Shown: in pieces, positions 14,679-14,798 of the stretch
Layout of the letters: every line of letters begins with the position of its first letter
How positions within the stretch are numbered: position 1 is the first letter of the stretch
Source: a virus
DNA length: 19,149 bases
Reading direction: 5' to 3' (one strand)
UHGV virus genome: UHGV-0137562
Notes under the pieces: model-generated
What the model saw: only the letters and a program-made list of their open reading frames with translations
Database searches by the model: none
Told to the model about the DNA's origin: nothing
Position numbers and translations under genes: made by a program

Positions 14679-14727
14679 TTTCTTATTCGCAAGGCATATG
14701 AGCAATAAAAAACACAGTAGCATCATA

Positions 14728-14755
14728 TTGACATTATGAGCAATGGCATCATAAT
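14728..14755 (+). promoter_or_regulatory. Near-consensus sigma70 promoter (TTGACA-N16-CATAAT) reading toward the Arc-like gene
   Basis: TTGACA at 14728-14733 and CATAAT at 14750-14755, separated by 16 nt. Predicted start falls at the edge of the 14762-14782 palindrome. Confidence 0.5.
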
Positions 14756-14761
14756 GGTGTC

Positions 14762-14782
14762 ATGACATCATGGTGATGTCAT
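14762..14782. promoter_or_regulatory. Perfect 9-bp inverted repeat (ATGACATCA-TGG-TGATGTCAT), candidate RHH operator
   Basis: 21-bp palindrome just downstream of the predicted -10, between the divergent RHH and Arc-like genes. Further TGACAT/ATGTCA and CATCAT half-site-like repeats lie at 14721-14790. Confidence 0.5.
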
Positions 14783-14798
14783 TATGACGGAGATATTG

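Follow-up and report, generated by a model that had tools for sequence, protein, structure and literature searches.

The viral genome segment UHGV-0137562 (19,149 nucleotides, referred to below as a whole as the window) corresponds to the late-operon end of a P22-like Escherichia coli prophage. It raises the question of what is controlled, and by which protein, in a 120-bp gap (positions 14679–14798) between two divergent genes, RHH1 and RHH2, which encode ribbon-helix-helix (RHH) proteins. In phage P22, the immI region holds an antirepressor switch of a type known since the 1980s, in which Mnt represses the promoter Pant and maintains lysogeny and Ant inactivates the primary repressor; this Mnt/Omnt/Pant–Pmnt system is said to go back to work of Sauer and colleagues in 1983. 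We consider it quite likely, from sequence comparison, that positions 14717–14782 are the operator/promoter core of an immI-type secondary immunity switch and that RHH1 is its operator-binding repressor (table 1).

The sigma-70 promoter that the original prediction had placed here has the letters and coordinates claimed for it: TTGACA at 14728–14733, a 16-nt spacer and CATAAT at 14750–14755, an 11/12 match that is the best in a 4-kb promoter scan and the only one of at least 11/12 in the whole window. This predicted strong rightward promoter would read into the arc-like RHH2 gene, as Pant does in P22, with a transcript start expected near 14762. The repeat described as following it immediately does come next, but six bases (14756–14761) separate it from the −10 hexamer, and what had been called a perfect 21-bp palindrome is perfect in its arms only: two fully complementary 9-nt arms (14762–14770 and 14774–14782) enclose an asymmetric TGG centre, giving a 9+3+9 inverted repeat. 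This repeat, named O1, spans about +1 to +21 of the predicted transcript; its dyad (14772) lies 17 bp past the −10, the distance being 16 bp in other loci of its class (class A, defined below) and 15 bp in P22 and in class D. O1 was also inspected by eye for a CRP- or Fur-like box, and this idea was set aside because the repeat does not match either consensus.

The extra TGACAT/TGTCAT and CATCAT repeats noticed earlier around O1 are present as well, and they group into two further copies of the operator unit, O2 and O3. The arms of O2 agree with the O1 unit at 16 of 18 positions, and its half-sites, spaced by 11 bp, lie on either side of the −10 hexamer; in O3 the left half-site is consensus and the right half is the −35 hexamer region, and class-B relatives carry TAGCACCA at the O3 position. 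Exact matches to CATCA-N3-TGRTG occur only twice in the whole window, at O2 and O1. The six half-site centres (14721.5, 14732.5, 14747.5, 14758.5, 14766.5 and 14777.5) are spaced by 11 bp within each unit, as expected for two RHH dimers on one helix face, and class B shows the same 11/8/9 half-site spacing around the −10. O1 best fits an Omnt-type operator for RHH1, and O2 and O3 would also be RHH1 sites.

By using an alignment of RHH2, and then RHH1, as queries against bacterial genomes and IMG/VR, we fetched 173 related loci, which share one plan: a leftward RHH1 gene, a gap of about 110 bp with a TTGACA-like −35, a 16- or 17-nt spacer and a −10, and a rightward RHH2 gene. TTGACA and the 16–17-nt spacing are retained in classes A, B and D and in P22, with TTGACT in some class-C loci. 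Within the gap, the repeats are of discrete types, and every type is paired with one RHH1 N-terminus. In class A, to which the window belongs, the RHH1 motif ..FIERFTVRMPDG goes with the repeats TAGCATCA and rCATCA-N3-TGrTGy; in class B, ..EMDRFN[VI]RLP goes with TAGCACCA and TTGGTTCTAGAACCAA; in class C, MKGMRNIAPFGLRMP goes with CACGGTGAAATCATTTCACCGTG, which lies across the −10; and in class D, MARTDPVFNLRMP goes with ACCCCACGGTGGGGT. Among 94 distinct control regions, RFTVR[ML]P (class A) was accompanied by CATCA-N3-TGrTG in 23/23 cases and RFN[VI]RLP (class B) by TGGTTnTAGnACCA in 34/34, while PFGLRMP (class C) and VFNLRMP (class D) each had their own repeat type (6/6 and 3/3, respectively). 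The KFNLRFP, KFVVRFP, KFTVRFP and KFMVRFP classes also have their own repeats. At least nine RHH1 beta-strand classes were seen across Enterobacterales prophages, on one and the same promoter scaffold.

Several of these classes have a near-identical helix A–B region (ERAKRNGRSMNSEIVQILEDA), so that the N-terminal arm, the strand and the operators appear to behave as an exchangeable cassette. The comparison of the window with E. coli 55989 (class B) delimits one such exchange: the block that diverges takes in RHH1 codons 1 to about 15 and the gap as far as the Shine–Dalgarno (SD) sequence of RHH2 (about 14799), and on its two sides the RHH1 helices are 67–87% identical and the sequence from RHH2 rightwards 90–100%. 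A divergent block between conserved flanks implies that the swapped unit is the operator-choosing part of an Arc/Mnt protein together with the operators. N-terminal residues decide operator choice in Arc and Mnt, as the work of Knight and Sauer (1989) is cited in PMC3325190.

Conservation within class A outlines the same core. We determined column conservation in 24 distinct class-A sequences, whose sources are Escherichia, Klebsiella, Yersinia, Hafnia, Lonsdalea and metagenomic viruses. It is 0.96 for O3/−35, 0.96 for O2/−10 and 0.92 for the arms of O1, as against 0.64–0.74 in the flanks and 0.67 at the third codon positions of both genes. The 3-bp centre of O1 scores 0.83 and varies freely (TGG, TAG, AAA, AAG, TGT), and among near-identical phages the sole single-nucleotide polymorphism of the control region falls on the O1 dyad centre, 14772. 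Of 5,426 complete E. coli genomes, 24 match the 601 bases around the control region with an identity of 99% or more, and in two of these the match lies on a 39.9-kb circular replicon, the phage genome itself.

RHH1 has the parts that such a repressor would use: an N-terminal arm, a beta-strand (FIERFTVRMP) with R12, T14 and R16 facing the DNA, helices A and B, and a C-terminal amphipathic helix. All three RHH proteins of the window score above the 20.4-bit cut-off of Pfam Arc (PF03869), with 63.7 bits for RHH1, 44.8 for RHH2 and 54.6 for RHH3. An AlphaFold2 model of RHH1 places helices at 19–32, 36–52 and 61–78, the last with a heptad-like L/I pattern; RHH1 would bind, probably as a dimer of dimers paired by this C-terminal helix, although in sequence its C-terminus has no relationship to the one of Mnt. 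The matches to solved structures are AmrZ (3qoq, 7e-8) and Mnt (1mnt, 2.5e-7). AmrZ of Pseudomonas aeruginosa (PDB 3QOQ), the better of the two, reads 5'-GGC half-sites through K18, V20 and R22 of KFVVRLP (PMC3325190). It is like RHH1 in its xFxVRxPxGMR strand and turn, its extended N-terminal arm and its C-terminal oligomerization domain, and the strand positions with which it reads its two half-sites align to R12/T14/R16, whereas it is a chromosomal global regulator with other targets and not a phage immunity repressor. The sister class KFVVRFP has GGCAT...ATGCC repeats, which calibrates with the GGC reading of AmrZ.

On the leftward side, RHH1 has two promoter candidates: ATGCCA-16-TATGAT (14749–14722), which reached 9/12 in the promoter scan, and an extended −10, TGcTACTGT (14722–14714), with a TGCTAnnnT skeleton that class A and class B both retain. 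By analogy with Pmnt and Pant of P22, we infer a leftward RHH1 promoter interleaved with the rightward one.

The comparison with the annotated P22 locus (NC_002371) supports most of what had been proposed. The original prediction was of a P22 Pant/Oarc–Omnt-style switch; the immI-like layout and an Omnt-type site are borne out, through homology of architecture and partly of sequence, whereas no equivalent of Oarc was found. Every part of P22 immI appears to be present (mnt-like, Pant/Pmnt, arc-like, sar-like and ant), and a recognizable Oarc is the only exception among the immI features that can be read from sequence. As in P22, the order is gene 16, sieA-like, mnt-like, promoter and operators, arc-like, sar-like, ant and tailspike, in the same orientation; a TTGACA promoter leads into arc–ant, with a dyad operator centred 15–17 bp past the −10; RHH1 has about 83 residues and a C-terminal helix (the P22 mnt coding sequence has 252 nt); the candidate leftward promoter overlaps the rightward one; a predicted antisense unit of the sar type is present; and Ant has the P22AR C-terminal domain. 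RHH2, in turn, is an RHH protein of 58 aa whose gene, like arc, opens the rightward operon and lies directly upstream of sar and ant.

The operator unit differs from that of P22: it is rCATCA-N3-TGrTGy here and GGTCCAC-G-GTGGACC in P22, and here it occurs in two to three copies over −35, −10 and +1, whereas P22 has one Omnt and a distinct Oarc. The window also has two tandem antirepressor genes and, by the tailspike gene, a separate and closer Mnt homologue, RHH3. The DNA-facing strand residues, R/T/R in RHH1, are H/N/R in Mnt, and the RHH2 strand SFQLRLP is far from that of Arc, QFNLRWP. Class D links the family to the P22 reference system: its control region reads TTGACA-17-TAAATT-ATCAATA-ACCCCACGGTGGGGT, that of P22 reads TTGACA-17-TATATT-CTCAATA-GGTCCACGGTGGACC (Omnt), and the start of its RHH1, MARTDPVFNLRMP, is near that of P22 Mnt, MARDDPHFNFRMP. 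The window would thus carry, as far as comparison can tell, a new specificity allele ("immunity type") of a known switch.

We infer binding, stoichiometry, direction of regulation and transcription starts as follows. The TTGACA-16-CATAAT promoter would drive arc-like RHH2 and one or two antirepressor genes. In the lysogen, RHH1 would be made from a weak leftward promoter overlapping the rightward one, and would bind the 19–21-bp units rCATCA-N3-TGrTGy, O1 first and then O2 and O3. Occupied operators would block RNA polymerase at the rightward promoter, so that antirepressor would not be produced and repression of the prophage would persist; their occupancy may also free or modulate the overlapping leftward promoter of RHH1 itself. 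The sar-like RNA would act as an additional translational brake on ant. Such a scheme gives a function to three genes whose sole annotation is "Arc family DNA-binding protein", and to an intergenic region that has no annotation; the prophage that carries them is present in no fewer than 24 complete E. coli genomes. The scheme would predict which prophages are hetero-immune at the antirepressor level, and it bears on cross-induction by trans-acting antirepressors. It also offers natural repressor/operator pairs for the study of RHH–DNA recognition, with near-identical scaffolds and differing beta-strands and half-sites. The switch itself is textbook-like and the gain is therefore incremental.

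A wider reading can be put forward only tentatively. The window may represent a single allele in an extensive natural series of specificity cassettes (RHH1 arm, beta-strand and operators) that can replace one another, in which the correlation of one DNA-facing residue change with one half-site base change would be a readable RHH recognition code shaped by heteroimmunity selection. Between classes A and B, the change is Thr14 versus Asn on the DNA-facing strand and TAGCATCA versus TAGCACCA, that is, T versus C in TAGCA[T/C]CA. Because no operator was found for RHH2 in the control region, this protein may work by a different mechanism from that of P22 Arc, such as action at a remote site or through RHH1.

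Several points weigh against the main reading, an immI-type switch repressed by RHH1. The repeat patterns were read off the same loci that they classify, which makes the one-to-one association table descriptive. The RHH1 N-terminus adjoins the operators, so that the association may partly be linkage, although the recurrent breakpoint at the junction of beta-strand and helix A argues against pure linkage. The assignment of O2 and O3 comes from half-site similarity only. The AlphaFold2 model, a single-sequence monomer with a predicted local distance difference test score of 73, misfolds the beta-strand and is uninformative on the oligomeric state. Finally, the promoter and the inverted repeat, taken singly, are within chance for 19 kb: dinucleotide shuffles of the window contain 0.32 promoters of such quality and 0.55 perfect inverted repeats with arms of at least 9 nt and a loop of at most 6, of which the window has two, O1 and one with a loop of 5 at 15939–15961, within the second antirepressor gene. 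Their joint presence in one 120-bp divergent intergenic region is rarer than either alone, and their conservation in relatives takes the observation well beyond chance.

An operator of one of the other two RHH proteins, either an autoregulatory one of arc-like RHH2 or one of RHH3, is the first alternative to be weighed, and we regard it as improbable. All three are Arc-family proteins, P22 Arc binds inside the corresponding promoter, and RHH2, for which no other site was found, needs some target. However, the RHH2 strand does not track the operator set: the strand SFQLRLP is found with the class-A and class-B sets and with that of locus L147, class-B operators occur with SFQLRLP, VFNLRLP and AFNLRLP, and class-A operators with SFQLRLP, SFQLRMP and SFLLRLP. 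Identity among the RHH2 proteins of Enterobacterales loci is 76% or more irrespective of operator type, and between the window and 55989 the RHH2 DNA is about 91–93% identical whereas the operators cannot be aligned. As for RHH3, its N-terminus is identical in loci of class A (11) and of class B (17).

We looked for an RHH2 operator by comparing spacers, −35 flanks, AATGG repeats and TAGCAyCA according to RHH2 strand type, and none of these tracked RHH2; its strand variants (SFQ, SFL, AFN, VFN, NFM) co-vary with no control-region element. In the −35/−10 spacer, the site of Oarc in P22, no conserved dyad and no Oarc equivalent was identified in the window and the relatives compared; the window has an 8-bp inverted repeat at 14732–39/14749–56, of which only 5 bp are kept in relatives, and the left half of the spacer is the least conserved part of the core. 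The earlier suggestion that RHH proteins bind palindromic operators overlapping the promoter is thus retained for RHH1, which co-varies with site type, and not for RHH2 and RHH3, and it is amended in that the unit is present in two to three copies and not in one.

The palindrome could instead act in RNA, as a 5'-terminal stem-loop of the arc–ant mRNA that affects stability or translation. A start near 14762 would make the repeat the first 21 nt of the message, with a 9-bp hairpin, and the arm changes seen in relatives preserve pairing (GCATCA/TGATGC and ACATCA/TGATGT). We judge this very unlikely, as the folding of the whole 5' leader does not surpass that of shuffled sequences (z=−0.6) and the hairpin is clear of the SD; as the unit has other copies before the start, across −10 and −35; and as the class-C palindrome is centred on the −10 and the class-B one begins inside it, so that neither is fully transcribable. 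A 5' hairpin as a side effect of the operator, or in a dual role, is possible. Finally, a fortuitous promoter-like match and inverted repeat, or a relic, in the AT-rich spacer of a decaying prophage is hardly credible in spite of the shuffle counts given above, since the core is 92–96% conserved across genera as against 67% at silent sites, the flanking genes are all intact, and the region recurs at 99% identity or more in the 24 genomes, in two of them on a circular replicon of phage size.

Table 1. Coordinates in the window and predicted nature of the features discussed
Feature	Position	Strand	Remarks
613-aa open reading frame (ORF), gene-16 position	11875–13716	+	Counterparts in related E. 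coli records annotated 'DNA transfer protein'
SieA-like membrane protein gene	13738–14376	−	PHROG 7745, E=1.6e-20; P22 sieA position
RHH1, 83-aa Mnt-like RHH repressor (putative)	14427–14678	−	Pfam Arc PF03869, E=1.4e-17
Candidate Pmnt-like promoter for RHH1	14714–14749	−	Two candidates; overlaps rightward promoter and O3
O3	14717–14737		GTAGCATCA-TAT-TGACATTAT; weaker copy of the unit, across −35; direct repeat
Pant-like sigma-70 promoter (predicted)	14728–14755	+	TTGACA-16-CATAAT, 11/12 match
O2	14743–14763		ATGGCATCA-TAA-TGGTGTCAT; imperfect copy of the unit, across −10; direct and inverted repeat
O1	14762–14782		ATGACATCA-TGG-TGATGTCAT; inverted repeat, the palindrome first flagged
RHH2, 58-aa Arc-like RHH protein	14799–14975	+	Pfam Arc, E=1.1e-11; SD GGAGA 14789–14793; first gene of the rightward operon
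sar-like antisense unit	14974–15084	−	Promoter TTGGAA-18-TACAAT (15084–15055), at P22 Psar position, inside the 5' end of ant
ant, antirepressor	15049–15687	+	Bro-N PF02498 and P22AR C-terminal PF10548; PHROG 245 Ant, E=5e-50
Second antirepressor-family gene	15775–16503	+	phrog_1726
Small ORF, 73 aa, conserved	16503–16724	+	phrog_4977
RHH3	16739–16996	−	Pfam Arc; directly upstream of tailspike, as in ST64T/L-type phages
Tailspike head-binding domain	17129 onward	+	PF09008

Downstream of RHH2, the start of ant aligns with that of P22 ant, and the 74-nt spacer between arc and ant aligns with its P22 counterpart at GAAGCCC...GGGC, TGTCAGTAA and AACATGAA, as well as with P22 sar. The predicted sar-like RNA (about 75 nt, 15049 to 14974) has complementarity to ant over its start codon and ribosome site, adopts a two-hairpin fold (−31.5 kcal/mol, z=−4.9) and ends in a GAGGCCCGG...CCGGGCUUC hairpin with a U run (terminator). 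An Rfam search of 13600–17600 with E-values up to 1 returned no family, the sar-like RNA included.

The module as a whole belongs to the variable insertion between ejection-protein genes and tailspike known as the 'ant moron' of P22-like phages, which is highly mosaic (ten types in sixteen genomes) and often contains mnt, arc and ant (Villafane et al. 2008, PMC2629481; compare also the paper on phage L). That survey covers gene content and not operator types; the window has the full mnt-like/arc-like/sar/ant/ant2 module plus a second mnt by the tailspike gene, which resembles the remnant of the ST64T/L type. Among deposited phages, a megablast search found no close match to the control region, phage JEP4 (95.8%) matching only from ant rightwards, and a distant-mode search of the phage collection yielded class-B relatives only. 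The tandem antirepressor block (15049–16724) is 95.8% identical to that of Escherichia phage JEP4, which does not have the control region of the window.

The two circular records are NZ_CP146561.1 (39,940 bp) and NZ_CP146567.1, in which the phage was entered as a 'plasmid' belonging to two E. coli isolates from wastewater; this suggests an excised or replicating phage genome in culture. We considered the circular replicon as a natural mnt-minus case, given the pseudogene call made by PGAP on RHH1, and rejected it, as the ORF is intact with one substitution (S50Y).

On the left, RHH1 and the sieA-like gene are 51 nt apart (ATG at 14376), or 17 nt with an alternative GTG start at 14409. No terminator-like site was found between them, and co-transcription is therefore probable: the genes for the immunity repressor and for superinfection exclusion may share one operon expressed in the prophage. 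In P22, mnt and sieA are set apart by a terminator and a separate promoter.

At the other end of the module, RHH3 and not RHH1 is nearest to P22 Mnt over its whole length and has a Mnt-like C-terminus. Its upstream region is conserved, with TACAAA-TCAACAAT-CGTACCGTTTCGGTATG and a palindrome, TACCG-TTT-CGGTA, at 17057–17069, and looks like a degenerate second region of the Pant/Omnt type that faces the tailspike gene. A strong terminator-like hairpin (16731–16752, AAACCCGC-TTAATC-GCGGGTTT) is located between the small ORF and RHH3, which converge; this hairpin, because of an A run upstream and a T run downstream, could end transcripts on both strands.

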